A stretch of DNA of 59,436 bases, filler included, from Bipalium vagum (Eukaryota), in the NCBI GenBank assembly GCA_037834085.1. It is 3 parts of 3 records of this genome, joined end to end, with 100 filler letters (N's around TTAATTAATTAA, not from the genome) between each part and the next. Parts side by side here need not be neighbours in the genome. Positions count along the whole stretch, not along the records: positions 36,092 to 59,436 come from JBBMKC010209708.1; 2 more parts are not named here. One strand, given 5' to 3'. Of the stretch, positions 8,701 to 54,500 are shown in pieces. Under the pieces are notes generated by a model. The model worked only from the letters and a program-made list of their open reading frames with translations. It searched no databases and was not told the origin of the DNA. The translations under genes and the position numbers were made by a program. The stretch's first letter is position 1. Each line of letters opens with the position of its first letter.

Positions 8701-10643
8701 TCGGAACAAGTCGTGATGAGACCATTTGTAATTCCAAATGATTAAGAAAAATGTTCAGAATTGATTCGTGAGAGATTGCCAACTCATAATCCATCTTTCT
8801 TAAACTGGAATGACGATTTTGAATAACCATTTCCCTCACTTTGGCAATATTTTTATCATCTGAAGATACTGAAGTTCAATATGAACTAATTTTCGACATT
8901 CTTTGAATTCTTTATACCCCCAGTATATTCGAGTTTTTGATAAAACTGATTCTACATGTTTTGTGAAACATTTTCAAAGAGTCCCAACATGTAATTTCGT
9001 TTAAAAGACAAAATTTAAGACAGATTCTCTGTTATATAATTTCATTATTTTAAAAATCGATTGTATTTGAAAATAAATAATCATATTGATTTATTTAAAC
9101 AAACAGATTATTGGATTGCGATAAAATTTCACGGGTCAATTGAGCACATTTTTAGTAAGTTCAGGCAAGATTTTTTAATGTGGGTTTTTAAAAATAATAA
9201 TACCCGGTACATTTTTACAACATAAAATATAATTTTTTTTAAAGAAACAAAATCAATTTATTAATTTCGGAGTTCGTCTTTTTATCCTAAAATTTACTTT
9301 CATTTTTACGTTTTAAATAAATTTCATATTTTTTCATTAAAAAATCAATTTAATGGTTACCGAAAGTCAAAATCGATCAAGTGATTTTTTGCACTCTAAT
9401 TATTGATTTTTCACAATTTAAAAAAAAATAAAGGAAATAAATGTGAAACCGAATGGTATTCGGTGGAGAAATTGATTCCGATACAGTCTTTAATGACAGC
9501 CTTTTATTGTAATAAGTTAATCCTCTTTCAAAGTATAAATTGGTCTTTACACATTACGTTGTGATGTTGGTCCAGGTTGATCAATGTAATTGCTTAATAA
9601 GCAGTTTCCTTAGAAACGGTCGAGACTTATGAAACCCGTAACAAAATAAAACAGAGGAATTATGTATATTTATAAGTGAGGACTAGAAAATCCATTAAAA
9701 TATGATCCAAAAGTGTAAAGTATATACCGAGACATTCAAGAATCACATTACTCATACGGAACAGCGCCATGTACCAAATTGATGTGGTATAATTTTGTAA
9801 ACTGTCAAATAAGGATTTTTATAAATGTCATTCTTGTAAAATTTTTGATACAGGCCTGGAGGACATGGAGACTGGATATTATTATTGAGACCTGGAAAAT
9901 TCCATTAGGAACTGCATGACTCTAAACAACATACCAGGCCTTAGTTGACTGTAAATAAGTACTTCTCTCAATCAATAGACAGAGCCAATTCCGTGACTGA
10001 TAAAAGTTGATTAGACTCTATTTTGGGATTTAAATGAAAAAGAGTTAGTCCTGGAATACTTAATTATCACTGGTGGAAATAAATTTAATCAAAAGTTTTA
10101 GTTAAATTGAAGACCAAAGAAAAAATAACAATTGTTGGAACATGTATCAAAAAGTGTACCATCCTCTCAAATTGTAACAAGAAATTAATGACAAACAAAC
10201 TGATAATTATCGATATTAAATCAATAATTACCTAACCCCAACTTTCTAAGCCAGTTACATCTTCCTGGTGTCCATAACTTAATTGCTTCTTTTGAAAAAT
10301 GTAAATGGGGGTACAAAAAGGCAAATAATAAAATAATAATCAATAATTTTATTTTTATCGAAGAGAAATAAAAATTTCGTTCTCTCTGTTACATAAAGTA
10401 TATAACCAAGTTTCTCATAGCTCCAGTTTAATTTATATCACTATTTCAGACGACCCTCCCGACTCGGATGTGAGGTTTCCTGCACCTGTTTCTAGTGATA
10501 ATGTAATTCGTTAATTACTCCAATCACCCCTTTGATTACAAGAGAAAGAGAATCAAGTATTTATGGATCCATCAATCACTTAGACAAATATTCCTAATTA
10601 GTTTAGTGAAAAACAGATGTTTTATTATGTTTTTCATTTTCTT

Positions 10644-10676
<33 letters not shown>

Positions 10677-13600
10677 TAATCAAACCACTCAATGATCATT
10701 AAATTAAGCACAACACCACAATTGACACTTGTCTCGTCGTTAACTAATGAAAATTATAGAAATCCTTCGCAAATTACATCTGGATTGAAAAATGAAAATA
10801 TTTTTAGACCTAATAGGGGGGGAGCAAGGACACTTATTAAACTGGTCGTCGTAGGAAACAATTGGACCAGAGAATAATAACAGAATTTCGACACGAGAGC
10901 GTCGAGAAAACGAGACAATGACTCTGTCCACATTGTGTCTTGAGTTAGTGTAGAACCAAACAACATCAGTTGATCGATCAACAAGTTCACGAAATCGATA
11001 AAAGTCAGAAAGAAGCGATTTGAAACGTTCGACATCCGTCACTTATTTCAAAGGTTCTTTGCTCAATTTGACAGAATGAAATTAAAACAAAAACCAGCCA
11101 ATGAACAGCCTCAATGAAATTCCGGTAGTCAAGCGATGATGGAGCGCATAAAATGTGCTTTATTCTACTTTATAAGATTTATTGTTATTTGGTGCTGCAC
11201 AATGTCATTCATTGGTGATTCAATTGACATTTGTAAAGATCCTTGGCCACAATAATAAATGTGAGCTTAATAAACAGAAATAATGAAAATATTATTTTAT
11301 TTATTTATATTATCATTATGATTATTATTATGGGAAGGTGGTAATAATACATTTTGAAAATAGTCTTTGGGCTCACCTGTTTATGCCTGTCGGCGAGCAT
11401 TCTGTTGTCTGACTGGTTCTTGGAATTGGAGTCTGCCTTTTCGAAAATTTTGTCAATAATATAATTATGCATTTTGGTTATAGCCTCGACAGTACCCAGG
11501 ATCAGACACACGCGTTCAGTTGTTCCTAAATACGTCTATGTCAGTAGTATAGGTCTGTCACAGTTATTTTCGAAAAGTTTTAATGATTCCAAAGGAGTCT
11601 TTGAACAATTTCAACGAAACATTCAACGGTGTTAAGCTCATACCATAAATGAGGGCTTTATAATAATAATGATGATAATATTTTATTATTATTCACATGT
11701 ACTTTATAAAAGATATTTAACATGACCCCATTTAAGGATGCAACCGGTGTGAAATGTCGTCTAAAAGCTGTCAAAATCGGAGGCCGATAAAAATGATTTA
11801 GTTTCGAGACTCGACTTTCAATAATTTGTGTCAACTGTCTAGCCCATGTCTGTCACAAATTTTGTACCAAAATCCATTTTCGAGAATAAGGGAAGCGAAT
11901 TGGGAGAATCTTTTGCAACACCAGGCACACTGAGGGGAGATTACAGAAAAATTCCCGGTCCCGGAATTTAACGAACTGACATCTCCCCCGGGCCGTAGAT
12001 GATGAAATTCCCCACAATGAGTATAAACCATTTCCAACCAGTTCCGAGATTGCAATATATAAGTTACGGCCTTGTTAAAGTACCCGTACAACTTACTCCA
12101 ATGACAAATTGAACAGAGTAACAAATGGTTAAGGTACTGCACGAACTGTTTGTGAAACTAAAGCAGGTTTCATCACATAGTGATCAATGTTCTGTCAGCA
12201 ACGAGCTGTACTTGAGAAAAGCGCCGCCAGATGACCAGTTTCGTGGAATGAGATCAATCATTTCATAACACAATTAGCGCATTAAAACCGGAATATATCA
12301 CATTAAGCGCAATCCGGATTAAGCAGCATCAAAGGATATTTTACTTTGCGGGATTAAGTAAATGGAAATATAATCCATTCTTCTTCTTTTTCTTCTTTCT
12401 CTCTCCGTTTCCACAATATTTCAAAAATTTTATTTCATATTTTAATCTATTGATTTTACACAACAATTTAATTCCAACCGACACCGATTCTGGCTAATGT
12501 TGCCCCCATTTGATGCCTGGGACTATATCACCTTATAAAATCCATTATTTCAGGCGGCTCCCATCAAAACCGCTTTGAGATTCACTGCGGAATATACATT
12601 TCTCATGTTTATATCGATCAATTAAATTGGATACGTTCTCAACTGTTGATCTTGTTGATTACATGGAGCCTGAGAATTGTATGAAATCAGGTGTTGCAAA
12701 AACTGTTGTACCAAGGACAACCGCACCTGTTCAGATGTTCAGCTTTGTAAGTGCAGATCAGTTCTCACTTTTACACAGCTCATCCACGTCTGATTCAAAC
12801 AAAAATTTTGCAATACATTGATTACAGTGGTAAAAAACGATTTTCATCTATTTTGTTACTGGATTTTTTATTTTAAGCATCTAGGGCATTTTAATCCCAA
12901 ACCCGGCTCAACAATGCTGAAAGATTATTAAACTATCAGGAATCAGCTGAGCGACAAACACGGGAGAGAACTCAGAGAAGAATGAAAGATGGGCTATTTT
13001 AAGCACTAGGAACTCCTTTTAACGACGAACTGAAGGGGCACACCCTACAAGATTTCTCGTTTAATGGCTAAACCTTTTATATATAATTATTCGAAGCCAA
13101 AGCTTCGATTATATAAAGCTGATTAAATTTTTGGTACTGGTTCTGCTGGTTCCTATGCCAACAAACAATGAGAATTTTGTATAATGTCCAGGATCTCACT
13201 GTTCTTCTCAGACATAGAACAGAATAATTGGAAACGTCCTGGATCAAGGGTATTGAATAATTGGTTGATTGGCAAAAGTAATTAAGGTTATCTTAAATTC
13301 GATCTCTAAACGGTTTACACAACCTGTATTATAGATTATATCGAAATTGATGAGACCGAGTGAGAAAAGGCTAGACGTTTGGTAGGAGCCAGTTGGCTGG
13401 TAATTGGCATTGGAATTCACATAAAAATACCAGACAATCTCAATTTCGCATTATTGCGGTGATCGTTGCCGTCGTTATGGTGATGTTAAGGAGAAAAGGT
13501 GACCAGAATTCATAATGACACCTTTATTGAACTTGTTTCTGTTAATCGTAGCATTAATAGATTAATCTCGTTTGCAAACTAAACATTTTTTGGAAGGAAA

Positions 13601-14952
13601 CTGGAAAAAACACCCGAAGACATTGAAACGATCAGCACGAATAGATTCATCGAACATTGTATAATCAATAAAAAAAGCTTGATTACCGGTGATCAAAGTA
13701 AAGAATGATATTTAAGAGCTTGGAAAAGTCATTGAAACGAACTTCTCTTATCCTCCCTCTCTTGGTTTTCATTGTATTTTATGTCTTACTTATAAACAAG
13801 AATTTCAACAATCCCATTTCCTTTGATGTCATGGTAACAAAAAAGTCAAGGAAAGAGGTCTGTCAAAGTTTTCAGAAGAATAGTTCGATCAGTACTATCT
13901 TGTGATCTGATAATGTCTGAAACAAATTAAGTCCTCAATTTTGAACACTGAACACAGAAAGAGGCAATATTTTCTGTTCCTTTATATCAAAATTTCCGAC
14001 TTTGACACGTTTATCGTTGGAAGAGAGATTCGATGTCCTTGGCATTATTCAAAATAAATTGGGTAACTGACACATTGACTCTGTGATAAAGCCTTTTACT
14101 CAAGTTCTTGCTGGTACTTGTTCTTGATTAATGGTGCTCAGACACAAAATAATATTTATATTCCTGAATACGACGATGGTTGGAGAGTCACTTTTCTTCT
14201 TGGTTGTCACTTAAATCTTAGACACGAGAATCAGAGGAGCGACTACTTGAACTTTTCTGATACTGTGGTAACGAAACAAAGTCCGCTAGATTTCCCAGAA
14301 GAATATTTCCACTAGAACTGTCTTGACACGTCACAATATCTCACAAAAGACACAAAAATCTCTAACAACAAGAACAGAAAACAATAATATTGATTACTTC
14401 AACCCTTTTACATCAAAATCTCAAACTTCAACCGCCGATTGTCGGCAAAAAAAGAGAAAAAATTAACAAAATCAAAGGAGATGTTCAATAATATTCCAAT
14501 ATATTTGTCAATAATCAAATAATCGATAATAAAACTAAAATCTATATCCAATACAATTGATTGTGAAATTTTACACCGAACAATTGCATACCTGGATAGA
14601 AATCGTTGGCCTTGGACATTTTAACTTTTGCGCCGGTTTCTTTCTGAATCTGACCGATGGCCTCACCGCCTTTGCCGATGATTGCTCCAGCTGCAACCGA
14701 TGGCACCAGAATTTTGAAATGAACGTTTTCATTCACTGGAAAATCGATTTTAATTAATATCTGTGGTGAAAAGTTGAAATTCTATCAGCTGAAAATCGTT
14801 ACAAATCTCACAAAAATTAACTGTCATTTAATTTACAATCAAGACGCACAATTAGAACTTTTCATATTACTTCCCTGAGAACTTTCGTCCGACGGCTTGG
14901 ACCATCCTTCTTGTGAAAAATCGTAGTCTGATTCTTTGTCACTTCCATTCAT
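2774..14952 (-). CDS. nova: Nova/Pasilla-family KH-domain RNA-binding splicing factor, 7 coding exons, 641 aa
   Basis: Exons (minus): 14952-14871, 14735-14592, 11525-11377, 4828-4675, 4619-4230, 4170-3788, 3397-2774. All introns GT-AG with consistent phases; total 1926 nt. KH1 [53 protein letters not shown]; KH2 [24 protein letters not shown]; Nova-specific linker [35 protein letters not shown]. Confidence 0.93.
7700..8252 (-). mobile_element. Internally deleted Tc1/mariner (DD41D/DUF4817-like) relic in Nova intron
   Basis: CAGGGTG-type end at ~8252; N-terminus [11 protein letters not shown]; C-terminal [40 protein letters not shown]. Confidence 0.55.
8520..9222 (-). mobile_element. Truncated mariner 5' half in Nova intron
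   Basis: TIR-like TGTAAAAATGTACCGGGTATT; fragments QRICLKFC and [43 protein letters not shown]. Confidence 0.75.
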
Positions 14953-19003: not shown

Positions 19004-19103
19004 NNNNNNNNNNNNNNNNNNNNNNNNNNNNNNNNNNNNNNNNNNNNTTAATTAATTAANNNNNNNNNNNNNNNNNNNNNNNNNNNNNNNNNNNNNNNNN
19101 NNN
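19004..19103. other. Assembly gap with artificial TTAATTAATTAA linker (also 35992-36091)
   Basis: Both gaps are exactly 100 nt: 44 N, TTAATTAATTAA, 44 N. Confidence 0.9.
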
Positions 19104-22082: not shown

Positions 22083-23208
22083 NNNNNNNNNNNNNNNNNN
22101 NNNNNNNNNNNNNNNNNNNNNNNNNNNNNNNNNNNNNNNNNNNNNNNNNNNNNNNNNNNNNNNNNNNNNNNNNNNNNNNNNNNNNNNNNNNNNNNNNNNN
22201 NNNNNNNNNNNNNNNNNNTTATTATTCTACTTATTACTCCAACTACTAAAGAATAAGAATTTTTTATTATATAATATATTTAAACGTATTTTTATTATAA
22301 TTTTTTTATTATATTTTTATTCATAATAATAATTATATTTTTATTAATAATAATTAATATATGTTTTTATTAATAATAATAATTAATTTAATTTGATTTT
22401 AATTTTCTAAATAGTAAATAAAATTTTCATCGAATTTGCAAAATATAATAATAATTATTTCTATAAGTAAATTTTCATTAATACCAGAGGCCATTTATGG
22501 AATTTTGGAAATAATCTTTCGTTAAGTCATTGGCAGCGAAGGGAATTTCATCCCCATCGAATTCTGTGATAACAGAAAAATTTTAATCGAATTTAAAAAT
22601 ATATATTTAATCAAGTAATGTTTTCCATTTGTAACTGACTCTGCAAGAAGAAATTTCCACCAAACAATAGTGCCACTCTCGTTGTGTTTATCGGGAAATC
22701 GTTTGTATATTAGGGTGGGGCCATATCTTTTTCTCTGTCAGTTTCAAACTGATCAGAAAAATTCGCTATTAAAACAATAAATTTATATCAACAGACAGTT
22801 TTACATGAGAATATTTGTTGTTTACTGAATTTTCCCCTACTTAATGAGATAATTTAAATATTATCACAATTAAACAAGTTTCGTTTGATCGATCTCTTAT
22901 TATAACAAAAATTTCGTTACAAAATTTCATTAATTATTTAATTTCAGTATCGAGTGCTCTTGAAAATTAATTGAAAGGATATTTTGTTTGTGATTTTCTT
23001 AATCATCATTAAATATTTTAATTATTTATTGATTTTTTTTAATTTAATTAATTTTTTTAATTTAATTTCACATTATCCTTTAATTAATCAATTAATCTTT
23101 TAATTACTTTAAGTTTTTAATAGATTTATTTGTTTGAAATGTATAGATTTTTTTTCAAAGATAATCTTTGACCAAATAGAATGGACTTTGCTTCTAGGGA
23201 ATAATGTA

Positions 23209-24393
23209 TTGGATTGGTGAGAAAGTTCGCGCGCTAATTAATTTTGAAATTTGAAAATCAAATTTTCATAAATTAATCATTCAGTAACATAACATATTTA
23301 ATAACATAATAGTCTCAGGTGACAATTAGAATATCATTATACAAGATAAAATTTCTATTTTCGTCATATTGTGTTTCATTTTGAAAAAGATAAGCATTAT
23401 ATTATTTATAAATATTATATTAATTTTAAAAGGTAAGCGAGTCTTCAATGGACATAGGACAATATTTAAAGTATATAGAAGGGATGCTTTAACAATACGA
23501 GTATGCCAAACATCTTTTACCAAACTCAGTTGTGGAGAATTCGATATGGACGACGCATCCGCTCCAGGTGCTCATCTCACATTGATCGAAATGCTATTAA
23601 GTCTATTTTCTAAAGGATTCGGGAAATTGCAACGATACTAAAGACATCGCATACAACGATAGAAAATACTGCGTAATCTGGAATTCGTTTCGCGACTGAG
23701 GCCAATTTCATTAATTTCAATACCAATTTCATTGCTGAAACGACAAGAAAACCGTCCATTCTTGAAGCAATTGGTTTCCAGTGATGAAAAGTGTGTGGTC
23801 TATGACAATGTTGGGTCTTCCCGATGATCCACCAAAGGCAGGAATACACTCCAAGAAGATCATGCTTTCTCTTTGGTGGGATTTTAAAGGTGTAATTTAT
23901 TACGAGCTGTTATCATTTTGCGAAACGATTAATTCAGATTTGTACTGCCATCAATTGACAAAAGTGAATACAATTCACGAAAATCGTCCAAGATTGGCAA
24001 ATCGAGATGGTGTTGTCTACCAACACAACAATTCCAGGCCTCATAATATCTTTGATCACCCTGAACAAATTATTGGCCCTTGGTGGGATGCTTTCCCACA
24101 TCCTTCATACTTATCGGACTTGGCCCCTACCGATACTCATTTTTTTGGTCGCTGCAGAATTCCTTAAACGAGAAAGCATTCAATGACGATGAGTCAGTCA
24201 GAAGGCACATTAACACCCTTCTTGCCAATAAACCCCGCAGTTCTACAAACGCGGCATCATGAATTTGGCGGAAAGATGGAGAAAGATCATTAATAATAGT
24301 GGTGAACATATGATTGATTAAATTTTTTTGTCAATAAAATATTTAGAATTTAATTTTTCATAAAAATGCGCACGAACTTTTTTACCAACCCAA
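23209..24393 (+). mobile_element. Near full-length decayed mariner (Mos1-like DD34D)
   Basis: TIR pair TTGGATTGGTGAGAAAGTTCGCGCG / GCGCACGAACTTTTTTACCAACCCAA with TA on both sides; KKIMLSLWWDFKGVIYYELL, HNNSRPH, HPSYLSDLAPTDTHFF. Confidence 0.92.
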
Positions 24394-31069: not shown

Positions 31070-31940
31070 GCGATATATAAAAAGTCAAAACAATTACATT
31101 AAAAAATTTTATGTAGAATAATTCCAATCATTCATAATAAAATTCTCCTCCAGTTTTGGCAGATTATGAATATCGTAATGACAAAAATTTTTTGATTTGT
31201 CCAAATCCACTAGTTCAGTCAAATTTGGACCTCCTCGTAATTATTAAAACTAGGTTGGGTAAAACATCCCATTTCAGCTGTTTTATCGTCTGAGCAACTG
31301 TTTTTGTAACATGAGGCCGAGAATTGTCATGGACCATTATTACCTTGTCATGTCTGTCAGCCCATTGTGGTCTTTTAGAAATTATTTCTTCGTTTAATCG
31401 TATAGGCTGTTGTTCATAACGGTTAGCATTAACTGTTTTACCAAATTTCAGTAATTTATGGTATAAAATACCTTTGTGATTCCACCATATGTTTAGAAGC
31501 ATCTTTTTCCCATGAATATCCCGTTTTGCTGTTGAGTTTGTCGGTTGTACAGGATCAACTCGCCATCATTTACGTTTTGGATTGCTGAAATAGATCTAAT
31601 TTTTATCTCCCGTAATTATGCGATGCAAGAATGATTTTCTTTTATTCTTTTCGAACAAAATGTTGCATATGGCTATCCGTTGCTGTTTATCTCTTTCCGA
31701 CAATTGTCGTTCAAATCAAAATTACCGTCCATGAATTGATTAAACCTGTTCCGACAATTTCTTTTGGCTAAATCATGGCTGTTATAAGTCTCTATCATTA
31801 ATTTATGCGTATCAATAGTATTTTTCTTTAAATGAAATAGGAAAAGCAATGCTCTTCGCATATATTGTTTTTCAGGTACAATTTCCGTCTTCTAGAACGA
31901 AAATTTTTAAATTATTTAAAAACTTGTTTACAAATTCTTA
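31070..31940 (-). mobile_element. Decayed Mos1-like mariner
   Basis: MRRALLFLFHLKK N-terminus; ITGDKN; LLNIWWNHKGILYHKLLK; HDNSRPHV. Confidence 0.88.
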
Positions 31941-33364: not shown

Positions 33365-33960
33365 TTATTTTATTTCCGTGGTTAATATGTGAAGCAAAAA
33401 TGGATTGATTTTGTTTCTAGATAGAAATGATGAACTCATCTCCATCCGCTTTGATTTATGATTCTCTTGGAGTTCATCAGGGACCCATTTATCCATTTTC
33501 TTTATCTTTCCAATAATTTTCAGATTCCACAAAACTCTTGCTAGACTAATACCAAGATCTTTTGCAAGCTGTCTTACTGTTATACATGGATTTTTTTCAG
33601 CGAGAAACTTAAGCTTTTCATTTTCCAGCAAGGTGTTAAAAAGTCCGCAACTTTTATTTTCAAGTATTGTATTGCTAAACCAAAATCTAATTTTGCGACC
33701 TTTCACAGTGTTTTGTCCAAATGTTTTGTTGATGTTTTCTGCAGCTTTCTTGGACTTATTACCATATTTGTATTCGTAAAAAAATAGAAGGCTACATTCC
33801 AAACTTTCATTTTAAAATAAATATTTTAACAATAGAGCTAAAATTAAATACTGAAAATATAAAACTTGTACTTTCAAATTATATCAATGACCTCAAAATA
33901 TATGAATATCTAAACAAACGATTATCTGAAAATCACATGTTTTGTATTAGCAACTTCATT
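33365..33960 (-). mobile_element. Mariner 5' half (Hsmar1-like)
   Basis: 145 aa ORF: FFYEYKYGNKSKKAAENINKTFG..KKMDKWVPDEL..NPFLLHILT. Confidence 0.85.
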
Positions 33961-36091
33961 ATTGAAAACATTACTTTGATGTTTTATTTATTTAAACTTA
34001 ATTCAAGGTTTGTATTATTAGGTTGCCAAGAAAGTAATTTCGTTTTTTATATGCATTACAAAACAAATTTTTTTAATCTTTATTATTTTAATATACAAAA
34101 TCTTTTGTGTTTATATAAAGTGCAAAAATAGCGCATTATTTAAATGAAATTTCATATTTATTCATGTATTAGTTTTTAATATTTTTAGATATGAAAATGT
34201 GACAAAACTCATTTAGACATTGTAACCCTTTATGAGTACCAAAAATAGCAATAACCCTGTTCTGACAATCAAAAGTTTATTGTTTAAAACTCCATCTCTA
34301 ATCAAATAATATTTCTTATACCCTCTTAATTAGTTAGATGTATTTATATATTCTTCTGGAATTGAATCAAAGCTTCCAATTTAAGATTCTCTTGTTGAAA
34401 ATGGATCTTAATATATATATATAACTGGAAAATTATAATAAAAAAATTATCTTACACTATAAATAATTTAGGTCCAAAGAACAGGAACTTGAATTTCAGA
34501 AAATACTTTCTTTACTTGTTAGTAAAAATATTTAAAACCCTTTCTTTTTTGTATTTTTAAATAAATTTTTTGTTTAAATATGTATGTGGGGTTATCAATT
34601 GTAGTAGAAAGAATCACTAAAAATTTTAATATTTCTTTTTTGGTTCTCTTGATCTTTATCAACAAGAATTTCGATGATTGTTCTCTTTTTACTTAAACTG
34701 AAAAATAAAAACTTTCTAAAAGCATTTTGATTTGTATAAATAATTAAATAAATTGGCCTCTATTTATATCTTCTGTTTCTCCTCTAACTGTACATTTAAT
34801 TCTTCTTACCCTTCGGCTACAGAATTCGTTTGTTTTAATTTAGAGAACCTCTCGAGTTTCTACTTCAAGAGAACATACCAATATCTCAAATAAAATAATA
34901 AAGTTTATTTATTTGAACCAGGTATCATATTCTACCTTGTATTCTTTGTGATTCAAGGTAAACGCATTAAAAATTTTGAGTTGTTCTTTTGTCATTCTAT
35001 CCTAGTATAGACTTTCTGGGTGTTAAGAAAAAGTAAAAAATAATAGTTTGCTACTTGAGCACACTTCTGATTGGTAGAGGCAGTGGGCACAATTATTGTT
35101 TATAAAGTCTACTCGAACCCAACAGAACCTAAGAAATATTTAAACTATTTGATTCATTAAATTCAATAATTAATATAATATTATTAGTTATTAATATAAT
35201 AAATATAATTATTCAGTATTTTATTTATTTATATGATAAAAATCGATAAACATAAGCTCCCTTCCACCACCTTTTACTCTTATATTTCTTTCTCCTTGAC
35301 TTAATTGATGGAACTTTTCTTCATTTGTTTTCTATCGTAGAATCATTCTGTGTTATCTAGTTGCTTTTCACTATAATACGCTGCGATATTCTACTTGTAC
35401 TTAAAGCCTAGAACTCATATGATTTTCTTTTTTTCTTGGTCATTGAAGGTATTGTAAAGGTAAAGATAGTTGAAACTTGTAGCTGTAATTAAAGAATAAG
35501 ATCTGACCAATCAGTTTTCAGCATTTTCAGAAATCTGGTTGGCTAATTGCACAACTTTGTATTTGGTAACATCTTGTAGTTTTTTTAATTTTTTAAATTT
35601 TAAAATTACTTGTATACTGGTAGACATAATTATTTATACTTAATGTTTCTTTAAGTGAATTTATCTCAATTAAGAAATTTGATGTTGGTTCAATTTTAAA
35701 AATATGTCTGTTGTTATCTTCTAGGTAGTGATATATATTTCTAAATTGGAAATATATTATTTTTGTAATTTTGATTGTCAATAATGAAATAAAGGACATA
35801 ATTTTTTATACCACTACAGTATCTTATAAGAAGAAAAGAAAGACGAGCCTAATTAATTATATTTCTTTTTTAATCAACAAATTGACCAACCTACTTCTAA
35901 AAGTTTTATACAGGTTAATAATTACATGTCGTTTTGTGTTATTTATCATATCTGCAGCCTGATTGATTTTCTGTCGCAGTTCAAGTAGGTTNNNNNNNNN
36001 NNNNNNNNNNNNNNNNNNNNNNNNNNNNNNNNNNNTTAATTAATTAANNNNNNNNNNNNNNNNNNNNNNNNNNNNNNNNNNNNNNNNNNNN

Positions 36092-42581: not shown

Positions 42582-45500
42582 TCAAATCATATGAAGAGTA
42601 AATGACAGGGGTTTTTTGTGCCACAAAAGATCTGAATTGAAATTTGTATAAATTCCACTACAAGAAAACTTGTACTTTTCCCGAAACAAGACCTCTGCAA
42701 CCCAAGACGCAACAAAATACAGCATAATTTGCGTTTTTAAATTTACGGGTCTTTTACTTGTGCAACTTGTAAATGTATTTTGAATCTTTTCAAATAAGAA
42801 CCCTCTGTGATTTGGATTGTTGAGTAAGTTCTGAAATAACTGAGAAAAAAAAAGATAATATAATATGTGAAAGTAATAGTTTCAAGTTATTTTTTAAATT
42901 CATATTTAATTGAAATATTTTAATGTTTATTTCTAATTTTTAAAACAATTTATAATAATATTTGCATTATCATTACGGAACAACTTAAATTTTATTAGAA
43001 TTCATTTTTTACAAACTTTTCAAATGACAAAATTACTCATAAAAAAGCCAGAATCCATGTAAATTATTAAACAATATTTCTTATATTTCATTCATCTCAT
43101 ATTAAGCAAATAATAAAGGAAATTGTTTTACTATTGCAAGTACATTAGTCTACACAGATTTGTATAGCAACATATCATCAAATGAGTTATCATGAAACTA
43201 CTTTTCTAAATTTGAAATATCTTTTATGAAATATTATCACTTTTTTGGCTATGGTATAGTCTCCCCATTTTTTTGGTTGGTACGCCACAATGGACTAATA
43301 AAAATTAAGCTTAAGGTTCAATAACCAATCAGATTAGGGTTAGGGATAAAAATTTTAAAAATTAGATTTATTATTATATTATTAAAATTATTCTTTTAAT
43401 TAGAGTTAGAACGAACAAATTATCTTAAATATTATTAGAATTAGGGTTATGGATTGATTTATCATTAAAAACCATAAAATGTTGTTAAAAATGTATAAGA
43501 TTTTTTTAAAAATTAGTTAATTTTTTTAAAGTATATTATTTTATTGAATAACTATTGTTACCATGTCAAATTTGAAATTTTTCAAGTGTTTTTTGATTTT
43601 TATTTGTCAATAACTTTTTTTTATTGAGTTAATTCGAAAAAAATTTTCAGTTTCGTAATAAGAATTTTACTTTCTTTTAGGAGATATATTTAAATTATCG
43701 AACGGGAGAGATACTATACCGTTACCTATTTTCATTTTCAATTAAATTTTTTCAACATTTACTTCACTGATCAACATTTTCTCAATATCAGAATTATAAT
43801 TTTATGTTTTATATGTATTTTGAACCAATGACAATTATTTATTTCCAAAATCACATTTTAAGCTTATATATAATAGACACTGAAAATCAGCCAACTGAAT
43901 TTCAGAATCAATTAAAACAGAGTATTTTAGTTGAAGTCTAAAATCGATTTGCTCTTCAACTGAATGATTTAGAAGTCATTCATTATTATTGATGGAGATT
44001 TTAAATGTTTTCGATTTTTGTACATGAGTTCAAGACAATTCGTCTTAATTCAGATATAGATGACCTTAAAAATTAACTGAAAAATTACTGATAAATTGTG
44101 AAATAAGATTTGATAAGATTAAAAATTACAGAAAAATTCGCATTGCAAAAGTTTCAAATCATCTATTCTCCTATAATTAAGAGATATTTTATAATTTCTT
44201 TATCTTAAAATATTGTGTAAAGTATATATTTTTAAGAAATACACAAAAAATAAAGTTTTATGTAAAAAATCTGATAAAAATATGAAAAATAAAAAGATTT
44301 TGAACTATATTACATTATTTAGAATAGGCAAACCAGTCTTGGATCATTACAAAAGTTACCATTTATAAGGGATATAGCTGAATAACAAATTAATCATAAT
44401 AGTGGCCGCAGAAAATAGTGTATTTTCTGAAAACGTTATTAAATAAAAAAATCTTTATTTCAAAACTTTTGACAATAAAATCAAATGATTGATTATAAAT
44501 TAATGTTTTAAAATTATTGATTTTATATTAAACCAAAAAATCGACATTTTTATTAAATCATTTCTGATAATACCAATTACAATTGAATATGGAAAATGGT
44601 TCTGGAAACTAAAATTGACAGGTAATTTACAAAATATTATTAATAAAGTTATTATTAATAAAAATATATTCATAATAATCAATATTAATTGCTAATTTTA
44701 AATTTTTTTCTTAATAAATATATTATTAATAAAATGAGAAAAATAAGAAAATTATTAATTATATTAAAGATTGTTTATTAATTTACAAAATATACTTAAT
44801 AAAATTATTAATAATAAAAATAAATATAATAAAAAAAACAATGACGATAAGAAAACAATTTCAATTAAGAAAAATAAAAAATTACTTCATCGTCAGCTTT
44901 AAATCTACAAGGTAATAAATGAAGATATGATGGTTTAGATGGAAGAGTTTCTAAAATTAAAGGACATATTTTGAAGCCAGTATTTTTTCGATGTAGACTT
45001 AAAGAAATTTGCAATTGAGTTAAGCAGCTTTTTGTGGATATGTAGTATGGATTCAATAAGATAATGATTAAATTGGCATCTTCAAATTCAGTCATGCTTT
45101 TATAACTTTCACTTTCGGGACCCATTGAACAAAATTTTATTTTCAAAGCTTAAAAGATAAACAATCAATATTTTAAAGTGACTAAAAATAAGATCAATAC
45201 TTACTATTTTTAATGCCTAATATAAAATATTTTAGAACATTAGCAATTGTAATATCATCTTCATGGAATGCAATTATAATATCCGTAGAATGTTTAGGAA
45301 AATTTAAAACCTGTGCTTCATTAATCATGGAGATAAGAATATTGTTCTTTTTAATGTTCCATAGAGATTTGAAAAACAGTCCACGGGCTTGTTTAGCAGC
45401 TTCTTCTAAGTCAATTTCATCCTATAAAAATTGTGAGAAAAATATAGAAAATTATAATTAACAATAATAAAGATATTTTTGTAAAAATTATAAAAAATAT

Positions 45501-48500
45501 TCTTTTCCAATAATTTTCCAAAAACAGTCATGGTGTGGGAGGATTCTCTTCAAATTTCAATAAATTCCAATAATTTTCCAAAAACAGTCATGGTGTGGGA
45601 GGATTCTCTTCAAATTTCAAAATCGAATCTTTCTTTTTTAACAAAAATGTTTCTGCTGAAAGTTTTAAGAATATGGTGAAAATCATGTCATTCCAACTTT
45701 AAAGCAAAATAGAAAGTTTAATAAAACTATTTTCCAACAAGATGGTGCAACATCTCATAAAACATTAACAACGCGACAGTTTCTTTACAAAAAATTGGGG
45801 AAAATCGTGTAGACAGTTGGGGCTTCCAATTTGTTTGGCTTTGCTATTCTCCAGACTTGACTCCAGTAGATTACGTACCTTGGCCATATATCAAACACAA
45901 AATTAATGCCGAAAATTTTCAATCAGTATCAGAACTGAAAGACAAAATAGAAGAAAATTACAATAATATACCGCAAATACTTCTAATCAATTGTGAAAAT
46001 TCAATACCAGAAAATAATGGAAACACATTTTGAATAAATATGTTTTTGTTAACCTCTGTAGCTGAACAATTTAGACTGGTCCATAAGAAATTATGCCTTC
46101 TAATAACAGATTTTCAGAAAGATAAAAGGCTGAAGTGGTTCCGACAACACCGGAACAACATATGGGATACATGAGTGGATATTGATGATAAATGGTTACA
46201 CTTACATTCGTTCAATCGCGAAAGTTATCGTGACAGTAGCCACAGAAAGAAAGTTCCTGTAATAAGCAAGACAAACATCCAAAAAATAATAGTACTAACC
46301 GCTGTGGAAAACTGAATTTGGAAAAAAGTTTAACGGTCTCCTTACCTAACCCAGACATCGTTAAAAATCACAAAAAGGGTGAAGTATACAAAGTTAATTC
46401 AACAATGACCTCGGACTCTTTTTACGAGGTCATTGATGCATAATGAAATCATGTCTGTAATCTGCAACAAAATTTTTTGGTGTCAAACAGTTTCCATCAA
46501 AATGGATAATGCCCGTCCACATGTTGGTAAAAAGAATGTGGAAAATTTAATTAAACATTAATCCAAAAATCACTGTTATAAATCAGCCGGCCAAATGTCC
46601 TAATTTAAACATCAATGACCTTGGATTCTTCAATTCCTTGAATAAGCGATGACAAAAATCTATTTGTAATGACCTAAACCAATTGTGGCCATATTTACAA
46701 GCTAAGTTTTGGTCTACCAAGAAAAACACACTCACTTCCCTATTTTATATGAAGTTTCGAATTGTGGATATGATCATTGTTTCAAAAGGAGCAGCATAGA
46801 TTAATATTAGCATTTTATCATGCATATAGTTTTAAAATACAAGTTTTCTTCATTTTCTTTTTATTCTTATAAATCCACTTTTATGACATGGAGTAAGTAA
46901 TTAGTTATTGCTTTTATAAATTCACAAGTATTTATGGGACAAACTATATAATCAGAAAATAAATGAACTTCAAGCAGAGCTTCAACATCCAGATATTTAC
47001 AAAAGATTTATCAAGTCTTTTACAAATTAAGTTATTCTTTTTAGTTAAAATAAGATTAAGTGTTCCAGAATTAAGATTCGAGTAATAATTGTGCATTTAA
47101 ATTGTAATTCACAAAACAGAATACAGCAACATAATAATATTATTATCGTTAATATAAAAGAAATTAAAATGAATGTAATTTTATTATTGTATCCAATGTC
47201 CTTTTTTTAAGAAAGTCAATTATCTGGTGATTGGAAAGTTTTGGTCACAAAATAAAACAGAATTTCATATTTTGCTATATGATGTTACCACAATGCAGTA
47301 AAACAACCATACAATGTTTTAAAAAAATTGAAGGGTTCATTAACTTCAGTTTTCTGTAATTTTTCATGAACACTTCATTTGTTGAACATTCAAATCAATT
47401 TTCTTCGGTTGTGATTTTATTCTATTCATATTTGTCCATTCTCAGCTGAGAATCTTCAACTGTATGAGCTTGGGGAACATTATGTTGATTGATTTGTTTT
47501 AGTACAAATAGTACTTTATGATCATTTAAATAATTTTTTTGGCATAGTGAAAGCGAGTTAAATCTGGCCAAAATATATCATTGATATTTTATGATATTTT
47601 ATACGTTCAACCTTTTTTTCGTACATAGTTATTCCTCATAATCATATCTTTCATAAAAGATAAAGTGATCTAAAATTTTTCATTTCAACATTTTAAAGGT
47701 TCTTGTGATATATTTTAGGCCAAACCTTTCCGACCACTTGGTGTGTCAGTTTCATAAAAAAATTTTATACTATCTTACATACCATGATAGAAGATTTTGA
47801 TCGATTCATATTTCCTGATAAAATTGGATTGATAAATGAAGTTAAAATCTCTTGAAAAAATGACAAAAAATGCAACGTTTGAGGTTCATTACTATCACTT
47901 GTAAGTTTTTCGAAACATGGAGTCAATATATTGAGAACAAAAAATGAGGATTTGAATGCAATGGAATTTTTATTTTTATTAATAATGTCTTGAATGTGAT
48001 CATTAGATATCCAAACAGGAAGGAGATGTGTCGAGAATTTAGGAGATTGATGTTGAGATAAGGCTAGGGCAAACTCTTCTTGGCACATTGTAGATTGAAA
48101 GTAGTTTTCAGAAAGAAAACTCACAATTAATTTACTGTTATTAATTGCATTGTACAGAGTATCCTGCCAAGCATAACCTTAAGTACAAAAGTATTTAATA
48201 AATTTGAACAATAAAATATATATAATTTTACCTGATTTAATTTTATCTTTATCAAAAAAAATATGTATATTCGGGAGGGAGTCTTGCAAAAATAATAAAA
48301 ATAAATTGACAATGTTGGAATCTTTATGAGAATACGAAATAAAGACATCAAAATTTTGAGTAGAAGACTTATTGACAACCTTTTCTTTTTGCATCTGACT
48401 TTTTTTGCTTAACTTCACTTTGTCTTCTTTTAAAATATCTGACAACGTTTTAGAAACGTGAGTGAATTTATCTTCAATATTTTCGTCATTACTTTTTACC

Positions 48501-51500
48501 CTTAATACAAAAGAAATATAAGAATCTTGAAGACAGAAGTAGGTACCGACAATCGATCCATTGGTTTAATGTCATGTACACAGGGAGACAATCAATGTCC
48601 ATCAAATAAACCGGAATTAAGATATTCCGATGAATTTTGTGTGATAAGCACAATGCTAAATTATAATATTCTACTGCCATTGGTGTTGCCAAAAAGCTTG
48701 GAGTTAAAAATACAACAACTCTAATGAAAAATATCAAAATGAAAACATTAAAATTATTTATATAAAATGTTTTCTTACTAAAATTGTAAAAGACTTATTT
48801 TAATAACCACTTATAATTTTAGAATTTCAAATGGTGTTCATAAATCCGAAGAATTTAGAATGTAAAACCATATTAAGAGTGTGATGCAAAATTATAAACA
48901 TTTTTGTTTAATATTATTGCAATCAATTAGAAGTTGGTTTTCCAGCATTTCAGAATTAATAAAAACTTTTATTATAGTTAAATACAATTTTAATTAAAAA
49001 TGACTGGGACAAAACTATAACTTCATTACAAGTTTCTTTAAAAAACATGTATATATATTTTTTAATATCTATACGTATGTTATATCCACAATATTAGGTC
49101 ATAAGGTATGAAATACCGTATTTTCCGAACTATAAGCCGCAACGGATTATAAACCGCACTCTGACAGTTTTCCACAGAATACAAAATTAACGTATAAGCC
49201 CCGTTAATAAAATACGAAATGTGAGGAGCTTAGACCCTTTTCGTATTTTATCAGTTTAAAAGAAATCTAATAGTAACAATAAATAATATATTTACCAAAT
49301 TTTTTTTATTAGTTTTGTAAGAACTCAGAAGTTTCATCATACTCAGAATTCTTATCAGTTACTTCATCTGAATCCACAGCGGAATTTTCTGTTTGTACTT
49401 CTCCTTGGACGTCAAAACTATTAAATATGCCTGCTTTAACAAAGCCGTTATTAATTGTTGATGTTGCGATAGTGTTCCAAGCTTCAAGAATCCATTCAAT
49501 TATTGTCACATAATCAACTCCTCACTGTTTACCTGTTAAAGTAAAAGTATGATCTCTTGAGGTCATCCACTGTTGCCAATTTTTTCTTAATTTTGCTTTA
49601 AATGATCTATTGACTGAAATATCAAGAGGTTGAAGAATCTTAGTCAATCCACCAGACATTTTAAATGAGATGTTTAAAGACTATTTATACAAACATTTTT
49701 AATTTTTATTGAAGTCAGGAAATTTTAAGAATTTTTAACATCAACGTACAGGTCGCATCGGACTATAAGCCTCAACACGTAAAGTATAATACATTTCAGG
49801 TTTTTGGGTGCAGCTTATAGTCCGGCCAATACGGTACATAAATTTACTAAAACATTTATTAAAGAATCTTTGACAATGAAAAATTTATTTAATCAAAGTA
49901 TACATTTCTACCACCTTGTTGGCAGCTTGGAGATGCCTTATCAAAATACTCAAGTTTCAGAGATTCGATGAATTACATAGTCACTTTGGACAGCCTCGAA
50001 GGAATGGAACCTTTTTCATTTTAAAATTATCAAATTCCTGAAAAAATAGGTCAGTAGGTGCAAGGTCTGGAGAATAATGTGGATGATCAACAATTTAATA
50101 CTATTTTGTTTTTTTCCCTTGTAATAACTTCAAAAATTCTGCTTAGATGCAGTTAGAGTATTTTCTTAATTTTTAAATTGAAAAGTTCTCACGCTTTGAT
50201 GATTTCAAGTCGTTGACATTGGAAAATTGCTTTCCACCAACATACACATTTCTAAGCTCCACTTTGCATACATTCTCAACAGGATTCAAATCTGGAGAAA
50301 GTGATGGTCATTATAAAAACGTTATTTCATTTTCATCATATCATACATAATTGCTTTTAGGTGAACAAGTGCATTGTGTTGTAAGAATAACAAATCTTAA
50401 CTACCAAATCTTTCAATTATGTTGACATAATGAGTTTTAAGCATTTTTCAATAGCCTTCCGCATTAAATGTTGTATCAATGATACTAATATAATTTTTTC
50501 CGAAATGCTCAAAAATCATCAATCTTTTGATTTACAAAATTCTTTCTTGCAAAGATTATGCTAGTAATAATCAAAGTCATCAGGGCCATCTTAATTGAAT
50601 TTTTTTCATCGTACACACCACCTTTGACATGGAAGATTCCAGATCATGTGGATTTTTGACCAGATTAGTGTCTTTAAGTTGTGCAGAATTTTTAATTGTG
50701 GAGTTGTGTTTTTTCATGTTTAAAGTTGCTTGACTTATTATGAACAAGAATAATATTTTTAAATAATTACCTATTTTAAACAAAAAGTTAATTATTCTGC
50801 AGTGAAGTTATAATGTTGCACCATTAATTTCAAAACAAAATATTAGTTTACAAAATATGCCTATCCTTTATTTATTAAAAGTTACTTTTTAAATTTGTAT
50901 TTAGTTTAATTTAATTAGATAGAAATATTTGATGATTTACTAAATATATATTTATGAAAATAACTAAAATAAAATGTAATAAGTAATAATTTTTTTATTC
51001 CATATTTTTCAACATTTTCTGAGTCACTGTTTTAAGATTGTTGAAGCACCATTTCAGATTGAATTTCTGTTAAAGTAATTATAGGATCTAAAAGTCGATC
51101 CTCAATAGTCAAGTCCAAATCAACCACTTCATCTTGACTAAATTTATCTATTAGATAAATACCAGTCATGACGTCAAAAAATATAGACCAATTATGGGTC
51201 TCCAGCTATATCAAAAAGAACGGCGATGAAGTGGTTCACACAATTTCACCAAGGCAGCTTTGAGTTGAAAGGTGCACTTTATTCTGACCGACCACTCGCA
51301 GACCATAAAATAGATTAAATGATTTTTTACACGCTTTTATCATGATAATTTAAAATGAAAAATTAAAAAAAACATATTTTTGTCTAAATCAAAAAAATAT
51401 GAAGAATAATACATTTACTAAGCCCTTGATAACCAAAACAATTTTATTTTTAAGTTATAATATTTTCTTACCAAATTATTTCAATTAAAGAAATTTTCGA

Positions 51501-54500
51501 ATATAAGGAATTTACTTTTTGGATTGAATCATATGACGCTCATTAACTGAACTCGTGTCACTTTTTAAATCATCGTCTTCAGAAATACATTTTAGCTTAA
51601 TAATAAATTTTTCTTCTGAAAATAATTTTGAAAAATGTTTCACTAATTTTTGAACAATTAATTCATTGACTTTCACATAAAGAAACAAAATATCCTTCTT
51701 TATGTCAAATACTTCATTAGCAAAAGGTTTCCAATTCATTTCAGATTTAAGTTTTGAGAACTCTTCCAAGGCTTCCTTGTCGTATTTCCCAATAGGGGAA
51801 TCACTCTTTTCTCTATAAATAACGATCTTCATACACTTTAAAGGCATGCCAGCAATGATCCACGATGAACAAGCTTTAACCATTGTTCTAATCATTATCT
51901 GTTTATTTGATCCCTAAGTTTAAATAATTTTACTTAAAGAAAAAGCATTTCGAAAATAAGTTTATTATTTAAATGTGACTTATGTATACATTGCATATAA
52001 AATATCTGAATGTTAAAAAGAAATGTGAAATATAAATAGTACGGTAACTCTAATCAATTGAAAATAATTTATTAAATAAAATAGATTGAATATGAAGTGC
52101 GCAAATGCAATATGTAGTCAAAAGTTTTATGAATTATCATCTGAAATTAAAGATTTAAAAGGATAAGTTTCAATATTTGTCGGAAACAACTGTTTTCACT
52201 CAAATTAGGAAAGGCAAACCAAAACCTTGGCAAAAATAGACTGATAACTAATAGTCACAGGAGAATAATAGATTGATGACATTAATACTCTTGTTGATTA
52301 GCTGTTTGGCTTAACATATGACAACTCAGAGTGTAGCCTGTTTGGCAGAAAAAATCAGTCTCATAATGGATTATCGGAGAATATTTAATAATAATAATTT
52401 CTGGATATTTTTTCTTTTATTTATTAATTATTATATCATTTAAAAATGAGATATATTTTCGAACAAACTTACACCTCCAACATTAAGCAACTGGTGATTG
52501 TGTTAGATTTTTGGAGCCAAGGGAAAATAACTAAGTCAATTATTTCAATATTAACAAGAGATGAACCGTAGCATTATTTTCACATAAAATATGAATAAAG
52601 TGTACACCGGAGACTATGGATCTCAGGCATATCTGGTTAATCAATATCCTTGTAAAAAAAATTGAATTCTAGCTGAATATCCATTTGTTTCTTTACATTC
52701 ATTGGCTTTTATGTAGTCTTTGTTTTAGAAATGAAAAACGTATATTAAAACAAAAGCTTATTTTAATTCAATTAAACAAAGTACTTTAATAAGAATTAAT
52801 GTGACAATGTACTAAAATTTCATATTAAACTAGTCAAGGTCATCTAATATCTAAGTACCAAAATGAATATTAACATGTCGTGTTTTAATATTTATAAGTT
52901 CATCTTAGCAACTAAATAATCACGATATCTTGGATAGGAAAAACTTATTTAATATACATAGTGGAAACAATAAAAAATTAATATTGAACTAAATAATTTT
53001 TAATTAATAATTTATTGATTTTATTATTTTATGGGGTTTTACAGAATCATATTTTTTAATATCAAATACATTTCTTACAAAGATTTTTTCTGCTTTACAA
53101 AAGTAGCGGGAAGCTTTATTACATAATTTCATTTACATAAATTAAATAAAAATTTAGATTTCATGAATAAAAAATTATGAGTGAAAAATAGAATGTAATG
53201 AAAGAAAGGAAAGAAAGAATTTCTGTGGACAAAAACCTTTTTGAACAATTAAAACGTTTATACAAAGTCAAACCAAAGAAAGAACTGCAACTAATCACCT
53301 TGTTAAGTAAAAATGCACTTTAACAGCTTTAAGAAAAATTGAAGATTGTGAACATGAGAGAGACTTGATATTTAAAAATTTTTAATATACAAAAAGCAGA
53401 AAGGAACACAATTAATAAAGATACCTTACATTCTGAAATACGTAAAATTATGAGGAATGACATTTTATTTACACAAGTTTGACGTAAAGAAAATTTATCC
53501 GTAAATCTTTCTATTTCACAGATATGTAGGGAAATGAAAGCTGTGGTATTAAAAAGGAAGCAATGAACAATCTATAAAGAAAAGCCTTTTATGCTATCGT
53601 ATTGAGAATGCGAGCATTTACAATACTGTTTCTTGATAAATCTTGATTTAACCTCAATACTTCAATTAATTATGGTTACACTTGTAGAAATCAAGATGCC
53701 ACATTATATCAGCCAAAATCCAAAGGTAAAAATCTTTCACTTTGCTCAATTATGTCACCTTCCGGATTTGAAAATTTTGAATTTCTTGTTAATTTATTTT
53801 TAGAGAATTGTCATCAAAGAGAAAATTTTAAAAATAATCCTGTTCTTATAATGGACAAAGTTAGATTTCAACATTACGCAGATGTTAAATAGCATTTACC
53901 TTATAAAATGTCCATCTACCTGTCTACTCACTAGATTTGAACCCTATCGAAAATGCTTTCACGTGCATCAAAATCGTTTGAATTTGATTAGACCAAGATC
54001 CTCAAAAAGAGAAGAACTACAAGGAATATTTCCCAAATTATTATGAGTTTAGGAGTTTTTTTACAAATACTACGAGTACTTTTGGGAATTGGTGAACGGA
54101 ATGTCAGAATCATCAATTAATATAAATGTTACATGTATGTACATTTTGTATGTTTTTCAATTTTATTTTTTAATACGAATTGTTATTTTATAAATGTAAA
54201 CTTTTATTTATGAAATGGACTGTAAATCCGAAAGTCTTGAAATACAGTGCCAATTTGATCAAAAACACCATTTCTGCAAAGATTTGTTATTTTATTTTAA
54301 TCGAGATCAAGAAGTTATAAGCGGTCCAGGGAATTTGTAATCATTAAAGAAATCATGTTTTGACCTGGACTACTTCACTATTACTATTGGAACAAGTTAT
54401 TCAAAAATTAACCTTTATGTACCGGTTTTCCATTCAATTTTGATGATGATCAATTGATCGCACCGATGACAGAGAAAAACTGTCAAAACAAATATAGATT

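Follow-up and report, generated by a model that had tools for sequence, protein, structure and literature searches.

A stretch of 59,436 nucleotides of the Bipalium vagum genome (GenBank assembly GCA_037834085.1; three record parts joined by filler, hereafter the window) carries, in the part taken from JBBMKC010209708.1, a predicted minus-strand gene for a protein in which a macrodomain is followed by three TIR domains (TIR1, TIR2 and TIR3). Comparison with homologues suggests one catalytic TIR (TIR2), a complementary pseudo-TIR (TIR1), a third repeat that lacks the BB loop, a macrodomain and bacterial kin. The best explanation for the whole, to which we give somewhat less than even weight, is that the protein would be a ligand-gated, nicotinamide adenine dinucleotide (NAD+)-cleaving immune enzyme, with a single active site shared between TIR2 and TIR1 and gated by the macrodomain.

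The ten-exon gene (56129-42582) was predicted by joining open frames at GT..AG boundaries; the joined frame comprises 804 codons with no internal stop. Five of the introns measure 45-56 bases and the other four 2.0-3.7 kb. Over residues 1-751 the model is collinear with named single animal proteins (best expectation value (E) 2e-110, 30% identity), and exons 8-10 are collinear up to residue 774 with P0001, a relative of 215 residues from a 1222-base contig (55% identity). This contig is presumably a transcript, and its collinearity supports the two junctions of exons 8-10 in a relative. Contigs of sequencing run X1 match exons 1-9 without a differing letter, X1 being possibly the source sample and hence not independent; a second matching of sequencing-run contigs showed no paralogue and did not recover the spanning contig. 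A 260-base low-depth match in run X2 was not counted as evidence. Exon 10 was chosen for its acceptor (the strongest pyrimidine-rich one), its phase (0) and its collinearity with P0001; an in-frame short exon at 44608 was dropped for the 42839 exon, which matches P0001. The C-terminal ~30 codons of the model are uncertain. The first-pass annotation had placed the feature at 44886..51750, which is too small, as the macrodomain exons reach 56129 and the last exon occupies 42839-42582; it had also overlooked the macrodomain at the N-terminus and the existence of bacterial relatives with a single TIR. The predicted features, all on the minus strand, are:

56000..56129, minus: exon 1, with the ATG, the start of the macrodomain and the GDIT motif (56063-56052), placed by homologue alignment
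55801..55954, minus: exon 2, macrodomain
55595..55751, minus: exon 3, macrodomain, with motifs CFE and PxxxTGxQ
51516..51913, minus: exon 4, end of the macrodomain, linker helix, TIR1 strand A (degenerate box DILFLY, 51694-51677) and degenerate BB loop
48547..48720, minus: exon 5, TIR1 strand C to strand E, with Y298 (48668-48666), Y318 (48608-48606) and the conserved DE-face motif (48584-48549)
48232..48500, minus: exon 6, TIR1 helix E, linker, TIR2 strand A (FISYSH, 48349-48329) and BB-loop Asp421 (48253-48251)
47783..48177, minus: exon 7, TIR2 helix B to helix E, with catalytic-position Glu462 (48076-48074) and Trp483 (48013-48011)
45205..45421, minus: exon 8, linker helix and TIR3 strand A (DIIIAF from 45283), collinear with P0001
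44886..45148, minus: exon 9, TIR3 with shortened BB loop and Gln676 (45017-45015)
42582..42839, minus: exon 10, TIR3 helix E, C-terminal helix and stop
51725..56129, minus: predicted macrodomain, residues 1-~210 (exons 1-4), from Foldseek and VIA alignment on homologue models
48428..51697, minus: TIR1, residues ~220-362, putatively pseudo-catalytic, DE face conserved
47825..48352, minus: TIR2, residues ~388-545, putative full catalytic set
42792..45286, minus: TIR3, residues ~605-735, BB loop lost, Glu lost in the Bipalium vagum lineage

On single exons, the Pfam model TIR_2 matches the second half of TIR2 at E 6e-10, TIR1 at 0.006 and TIR3 at 0.007. In a homologue model TIR1 and TIR2 fit TIR structures at Z 14-16; TIR3 was assigned to the fold by Pfam, secondary structure and tree only. 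The helix-C stretches align in a gap-free register that places Y298 (TAT) of TIR1, E462 (GAG) of TIR2 and Q676 (CAA) of TIR3 in one column. Roq1 aligns with the family profile without gaps, such that the second Glu of CxEE is Roq1 E86 and the Asp of FxD is D45 (residues counted from the printed chain, in an alignment by sequence rather than by residue-level structural superposition). These residues are reported to be the catalytic Glu and the BB-loop Asp, both crucial (PMC13732033). At the E86 position only TIR2 has Glu, and the BB-loop Asp position holds D421 in TIR2, K253 in TIR1 and C638 in TIR3; the BB-loop Gly of TIR2 is G428. Because of this alignment, E462 and D421 are taken as the putative catalytic set of TIR2. 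The first-pass annotation had the three helix-C stretches and their open frames right, all on the minus strand, as well as the strand-A boxes (DILFLY in TIR1, FISYS, or DVFISYS in full, in TIR2, and DIIIAF in TIR3), and the Roq1 alignment bears out its claim that the CxxE Glu (codon 48074-48076) is confined to TIR2. The neighbouring Glu of TIR1, E297, which at the catalytic position would have refuted that claim, aligns by sequence with the non-catalytic Roq1 E85, where active TIR2 has a Glu too.

How far this pattern extends was read from an animal family collected by a search with exon 9 (45 proteins) and a profile of 17 sequences, which gave 64 proteins among 7987 scored candidates. Named members come from echinoderms, hemichordates, molluscs, annelids, nemerteans, a brachiopod, Macrostomum and the jellyfish Rhopilema, and nearly all are annotated as 'uncharacterized'; vertebrates, arthropods and nematodes do not appear among the matches listed, which is not proof of absence. 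Word-based homologue searches with exons 7 and 5 gave no matches, a search of the ESM Atlas with exon 4 no usable match, and exon 5 none among PDB sequences. The tally comprises 68 animal rows (isoforms and partial models included), 24 TIR3 fragments and 8 bacterial rows, and leaves out the unrelated multi-TIR proteins P0025, P0037, P0038 and P0039, the short isoforms P0046 and P0049 and the TIR-less P0100.

The catalytic column of TIR2 reads E in 65 of the 66 rows with a residue (R 1, gap 2), whereas that of TIR1 is non-E in 63/65 (Q 52, L 6, K 2, E 2, D 1, H 1, V 1, gap 3); this much of the proposed pattern is conserved in homologues. TIR3 retains E in 56/62 rows (D 2, N 2, L 1, A 1, gap 6) and in 22 of the 24 fragments (D 1; Q 1, which is P0001), and all eight bacterial single TIRs have E. 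In a subset of 27 proteins below 60% identity, E stands in 27 TIR2s, in 2 TIR1s (Q in 22) and in 24 TIR3s. Two flanking repeats without Glu, as first proposed, are thus confined to this lineage. By these alignments TIR1 is a pseudo-enzyme across the family, its Tyr is, among the rows tallied, special to the Bipalium vagum gene, and both the E-to-Y change in TIR1 and the E-to-Q change in TIR3 are details of the lineage: Bipalium vagum and P0001 both have Gln in TIR3 and agree residue for residue in a helix-C stretch, and rows from Macrostomum, Owenia, a scallop and a crinoid have lost the TIR3 Glu as well. The sole rows with Glu in the TIR1 column, P0006 and P0012 (Tubulanus), both lack the BB-loop Asp there. 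Three cysteines in helix C and the DCR motif are strongly conserved in family TIR1 (P0014 C296, C305 and C338), the first of them being lost in Bipalium vagum.

A quick tree (79 TIR domains, 138 columns) puts each repeat into a group of its own (Shimodaira-Hasegawa-like approximate likelihood ratio test 99, 94 and 97) and leaves many forks open. The Bipalium vagum repeats sit in the matching groups on long branches (1.05-1.54), TIR1 next to a Macrostomum row (support 82). Jellyfish, spiralians and ambulacrarians occur in each group, and since the jellyfish row is present in all three, the triplication likely predates the split between cnidarians and bilaterians.

The two animal repeats that precede TIR3 appear to have kept opposite faces of the single TIR seen in their bacterial relatives. 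In other TIR proteins the BE site is reported to combine the BB loop of one TIR with the DE surface of another (10.1101/2021.10.02.462850). An alignment of 195 TIR domains, with the bacterial single TIR as reference for retention scores, shows Glu and BB-loop Asp together in 8/8 bacterial TIRs, 59/59 TIR2s and 0/64 TIR1s; the BB-loop Asp and Gly are both present in 59/59 homologous TIR2s. TIR1 resembles the bacterial TIR more closely than TIR2 does in strand A of 1/59 and in BB loop and helix B of 0/59 proteins, but in strand D of 54/59, helix D-strand E of 59/59 and helix E of 56/59. The repeats of Bipalium vagum are split identically for strand A, BB loop, strand D and helix D-strand E. Identity within classes, which involves no reference (27 proteins below 60% identity), runs in the BB region at 0.33 for TIR1, 0.64 for TIR2 and 0.10 for TIR3, and in helix D-strand E at 0.62, 0.23 and 0.39, respectively. 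A strand-D aromatic is found in 8/8 bacterial TIRs, 57/64 TIR1s, 4/59 TIR2s and 0/60 TIR3s; it aligns with a Trp 19 residues past the Glu in PDB 7uxr, which we take to be BtTir, a relative of AbTir, and the spacing equals that of AbTir E208-W227. AbTir W227 of the partner subunit is reported to bind adenine (10.1101/2022.05.07.491051). Residues invariant at 100% in TIR2 are S-Y-x-H, F-x-D, G, W-Q, Y, S, C and E, and TIR3 has a gap at the BB-loop Gly in 58/60. Judged by alignment, TIR2 retained the catalytic face of the bacterial TIR (strand A, BB loop, helix B and helix C) while its DE face drifted; TIR1 is the reverse, with the DE partner face retained and the catalytic face left to drift, a division found in jellyfish and sea urchins alike; the BB loop of TIR3 is lost, and TIR2 is the sole repeat with a full catalytic set.

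The N-terminal domain was recognised as a macrodomain from structure. In an AlphaFold2 model of homologue P0014 (predicted local distance difference test 79, predicted template modelling score (pTM) 0.53), residues 5-210 match the macrodomains of macroH2A, PARP14 and PARP9; Foldseek pairs the domain with macroH2A1.1 at E 1.9e-6, and VIA structural alignment of homologue models gives Z 15-18 against ADP-ribose-binding macrodomains. The bacterial model aligns with Af1521 at VIA Z 18.2 (root-mean-square deviation (rmsd) 2.5, 176 aligned residues). Pfam did not detect the macrodomain in the 23 family proteins scanned. The Bipalium vagum domain retains GDIT, CFE and PxxxTGxQ; the Asp of GD(I)T motifs binds adenine in macrodomains, and this residue (D24) is Asp in 62/63 animal and 8/8 bacterial rows. 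Close to the predicted ligand loop, Bipalium vagum has W55 and S56 (55923-55918 region, exon 2) where the family has Gly-Ala (58/61 and 52/61 animal rows), and the ligand choice of the macrodomain may, by sequence, differ in this lineage.

Eight bacterial proteins of 339-626 residues combine an equivalent macrodomain with a single TIR; they match the profile at E 2e-90 to 6e-60 and are about 30-37% identical to the animal rows. The bacterial members, P0099 (Ca. Uabimicrobium), P0101-P0107 and L002 (Accumulibacter), are uncharacterised. The ESM Atlas holds several similar bacterial clusters, some of them annotated Macro plus TIR. The distribution in bacteria is patchy: 1/400 and 1/401 sampled genomes were positive, in each case the seed genome, with one further genome unscored, and a metagenome scan added a single TIR fragment and two loci (L004 and L005) that match distantly and in the macrodomain only (25% identity). 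The model of P0105, a bacterial macrodomain-TIR protein, has a pTM of 0.87, predicting that the two domains pack together. Full loci are available for two neighbourhoods: in Accumulibacter (L002, 6001-11628) two further TIR genes come after the macrodomain-TIR gene, the second of them a TIR-TPR gene resembling TPR proteins of FxSxx systems below cutoff, so that the locus is a possible defence cluster; the neighbours in L001 are housekeeping genes. No PADLOC or NCBIfam model covers the bacterial macrodomain or passes its cutoff. A defence role of the bacterial proteins is plausible, and on sequence grounds the animal triple-TIR protein is likely derived from such a single-TIR protein; the quick tree does not resolve the relation of the bacterial to the animal TIR groups and gives no transfer direction.

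These observations can be combined in the following manner: TIR2 would contribute the Glu and the BB loop to a BE-type NAD+ cleft, and TIR1 the adenine-side DE surface, with Y318 in the place of AbTir W227. Since the BB loop is missing from TIR1 and TIR3, and an intact DE face from most TIR2s, TIR2:TIR1 would form a capped pair and not a filament that can grow. The idea that a dead repeat supplies a partner interface fits TIR1, which selectively retains its DE face; the three-unit pre-assembled mini-filament once proposed is unlikely, and a capped pair fits better. The step between TIRs is roughly 30-35 Å by estimate, a distance that the spacer of 31-60 residues (median 41, 60 rows) from the DCR Cys of TIR1 to strand A of TIR2 would be long enough to span. 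This spacer would permit pairing in cis; pairing in trans would also be possible. More tentatively, the macrodomain, predicted to pack on TIR1, may bind ADP-ribose or an ADP-ribose-derived signal and switch the pair on or off, and TIR3 may serve as scaffold or lateral partner. Taken separately, the alignments suggest that TIR2 probably cleaves NAD+, and tilt the balance slightly towards a requirement for the DE face of TIR1 in this cleavage; gating by a macrodomain ligand is a tentative proposal, with the chances a little on the other side.

Several points weigh against the shared site. All folds were computed on homologues (P0014 and P0105) and not on the Bipalium vagum protein. The counts of 59/59 reflect one ancient duplication and its long maintenance, not independent events. 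TLR2 also has the helix-C Glu, yet mammalian TIRs are for the most part considered inactive (10.64898/2026.09.21.753143), so that the Glu alone is no proof of catalysis. The helix-C Trp present in Roq1 and AbTir is missing from TIR2. Apart from these points, inter-domain covariation in 54-61 rows did not set any of the four domain pairs apart from shuffled controls, whose range took in the top scores, and a complex prediction of TIR2, TIR1 and NAD (homologue P0014, run without an alignment) scored 0.01, which speaks neither for nor against pairing.

Further objections concern the face of TIR1 and amount to an explanation of their own, unlikely but the strongest competitor: TIR1 would be a non-catalytic dock or brake whose D-E surface binds the macrodomain, and TIR2, once released, would be active through intermolecular TIR2:TIR2 contacts. 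Because the bacterial macrodomain-TIR protein is modelled as one rigid unit, and rows for the animal macrodomain-TIR1 part stand in that alignment, the retained surface of TIR1, which adjoins the macrodomain in the chain, may be a macrodomain dock and not a partner face. Bipalium vagum TIR2 carries Trp483 at the strand-D position and could therefore pair with itself; for RRS1/RPS4, the best models with bound NAD+ are reported to build the BE site from a pair of active RPS4 domains and not from an active and a dead one (PMC13732033). Across the family, however, the D-E region of TIR2 (identity 0.23) is less constrained than any other part of TIR1 or TIR2, helix E excepted, and the strand-D aromatic is present in only four of 59 TIR2 homologues, which makes it a poor face for self-pairing. 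A dock is, moreover, compatible with the shared site, as the macrodomain could mask a face that later completes it.

Improbable, by comparison, is a non-enzymatic scaffold in the manner of the adaptors MyD88 and MAL, in which the Glu of TIR2 would be structural and the macrodomain would only localise the protein to ADP-ribosylated targets. Modelled TIR1 does match IL-1RAcP, Hydra TRR-2, MyD88 and MAL best (Z 14-15), TLR2 and MyD88 head the sequence matches, TLR2 with the same Glu, and ecTIR-DC proteins have been hypothesised to be adaptors (PMC6321704). Modelled TIR2, on the other hand, matches RPP1, RPS4 and SARM1 best, its invariant residues are the pocket set of the bacterial relatives, and fusion to a macrodomain would point to NAD+/ADP-ribose chemistry. 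That TIR2 and TIR3 are both catalytic family-wide, with the site of TIR3 lost in the Bipalium vagum lineage only and the BB loop or pocket supplied otherwise, is more doubtful still: the widely retained Glu of TIR3 speaks for it, but the deleted BB loop, a degenerate strand A (identity 0.30) and the loss of the Glu in Macrostomum, Owenia, scallop and crinoid rows speak against it. Decay of a dying gene, or three TIRs from separate genes, is very improbable, since the long branches, the changes at conserved sites (A295 for Cys; W55 and S56 in the macrodomain) and the lack of any RNA run listed for Bipalium vagum are outweighed by ten exons without stop or frameshift, collinearity with single animal proteins and the TIR3 Gln and helix-C stretch common to P0001 at 55% overall identity.

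If the shared site is set into its evolutionary context, a wider reading arises that we regard as speculative and rather unlikely in its entirety: a bacterial macrodomain-TIR defence protein would have been acquired before the split between cnidarians and bilaterians, its TIR tripled, and the halves of the BE site divided between neighbouring repeats, yielding a filament-free, self-capped single-chain NADase with a switch for an ADP-ribose-type messenger and, in many animals, a prenylation anchor, that is, a Thoeris-like animal circuit. A Cys-x-x-x ending is a likely prenylation signal; 34/68 animal rows (among P0002-P0098) end in this way, mostly as CaaL/I/V after a long low-complexity tail, and the predicted end of the Bipalium vagum protein has neither a CaaX-like motif nor such a tail. 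If the family is enzymatic as proposed, the few animal TIR enzymes known to us (SARM1, TIR-STING and the recent TeTIR) would be joined by one that is widespread in invertebrates, carries a macrodomain sensor and has close relatives in bacteria. The family would also constitute a natural experiment in which the two faces of a TIR active site are parted into different repeats, so that the roles of the surfaces become separable by swaps, and it may reveal an ADP-ribose-type immune messenger in animals.

The surroundings of the gene resemble an animal genome: the window is AT-rich (GC 22-36%), with 14 open reading frames of at least 100 codons, short introns and transposase relics. Five runs of N totalling 312 bases (19004-19103, 22083-22218 and 35992-36091 among them) lie outside the TIR gene. 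Intron 7 contains a perfect 60-base tandem duplication (45505-45620, 1.9 copies), and intron 4 a Pfam DDE_1 transposase piece (49525-49680, minus); other decayed pieces, matching Transposase_1 and Mos1 HTH_48 in Pfam, lie at 23766-24164 (plus), 31218-31565 (minus) and 33368-33811 (minus), and the transposase pieces in the window are high-copy by contig depth. Directly upstream of the TIR gene, broken frames at 56900-58100 (minus) presumably resemble a hAT-type transposase; three pieces of them had no Pfam match. A multi-exon KH-domain gene at 2777-14781 (minus; KH_1 matches at 14545-14781 and 4652-4849) is, we assume, similar to Nova.

In the full text searched, with subscription journals mostly outside it, no description of the macrodomain-triple-TIR family was found; the ecTIR-DC catalogue of Gerdol et al. 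2017, which reportedly covers invertebrate ecTIR-DC families, or the supplements of a TIR atlas preprint may include members. ecTIR-DC proteins are likewise conserved invertebrate cytosolic TIR proteins, some of them multi-TIR, but the macrodomain is absent from all placozoan drawings in PMC6321704. With SARM1/TIR-1 the family shares an animal TIR with the helix-C Glu and, as proposed here, an active site of two TIRs and a nucleotide-sensing N-terminal regulator; it differs in that SARM1/TIR-1 combines ARM-SAM-SAM with a single, self-assembling TIR, and Pfam matched TIR only, and neither ARM nor SAM, in 9 window frames and 23 family proteins. Type II Thoeris likewise pairs a TIR (ThsB) with a macrodomain sensor (ThsA) of a His-ADPR signal (10.64898/2025.12.03.692087), but distributes them over two genes and uses the macrodomain to drive a membrane pore, whereas here both stand in a single chain, in animals and bacteria. 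ThsA_Macro (PF20016) had no match at E 0.01 in the 23 proteins, and EcThsA aligns with the homologue model at Z 11.2 (rmsd 3.3, 175 aligned), compared with Z 15 for PARP14 and macroH2A. RRS1/RPS4, before which no heteromeric TIR NADase had been shown according to the 2026 paper (PMC13732033), provides the precedent of one TIR with Glu and BB-loop Asp and a partner without both; it consists of two linked genes with NB-ARC and LRR (neither matched by Pfam in the 23 family proteins) and a site modelled between active TIRs, in contrast to one chain in which the dead repeat has the DE face. The Glu and BB-loop Asp of Roq1 (E86 and D45) and the partner aromatic of AbTir (W227) map onto the family, but AbTir and Roq1/RUN1 form homomeric assemblies with both faces on each TIR. 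Also close are the bacterial macrodomain-single-TIR proteins, which have the same macrodomain subfamily and TIR motifs, and in which one TIR bears both faces in place of the three specialised animal repeats.

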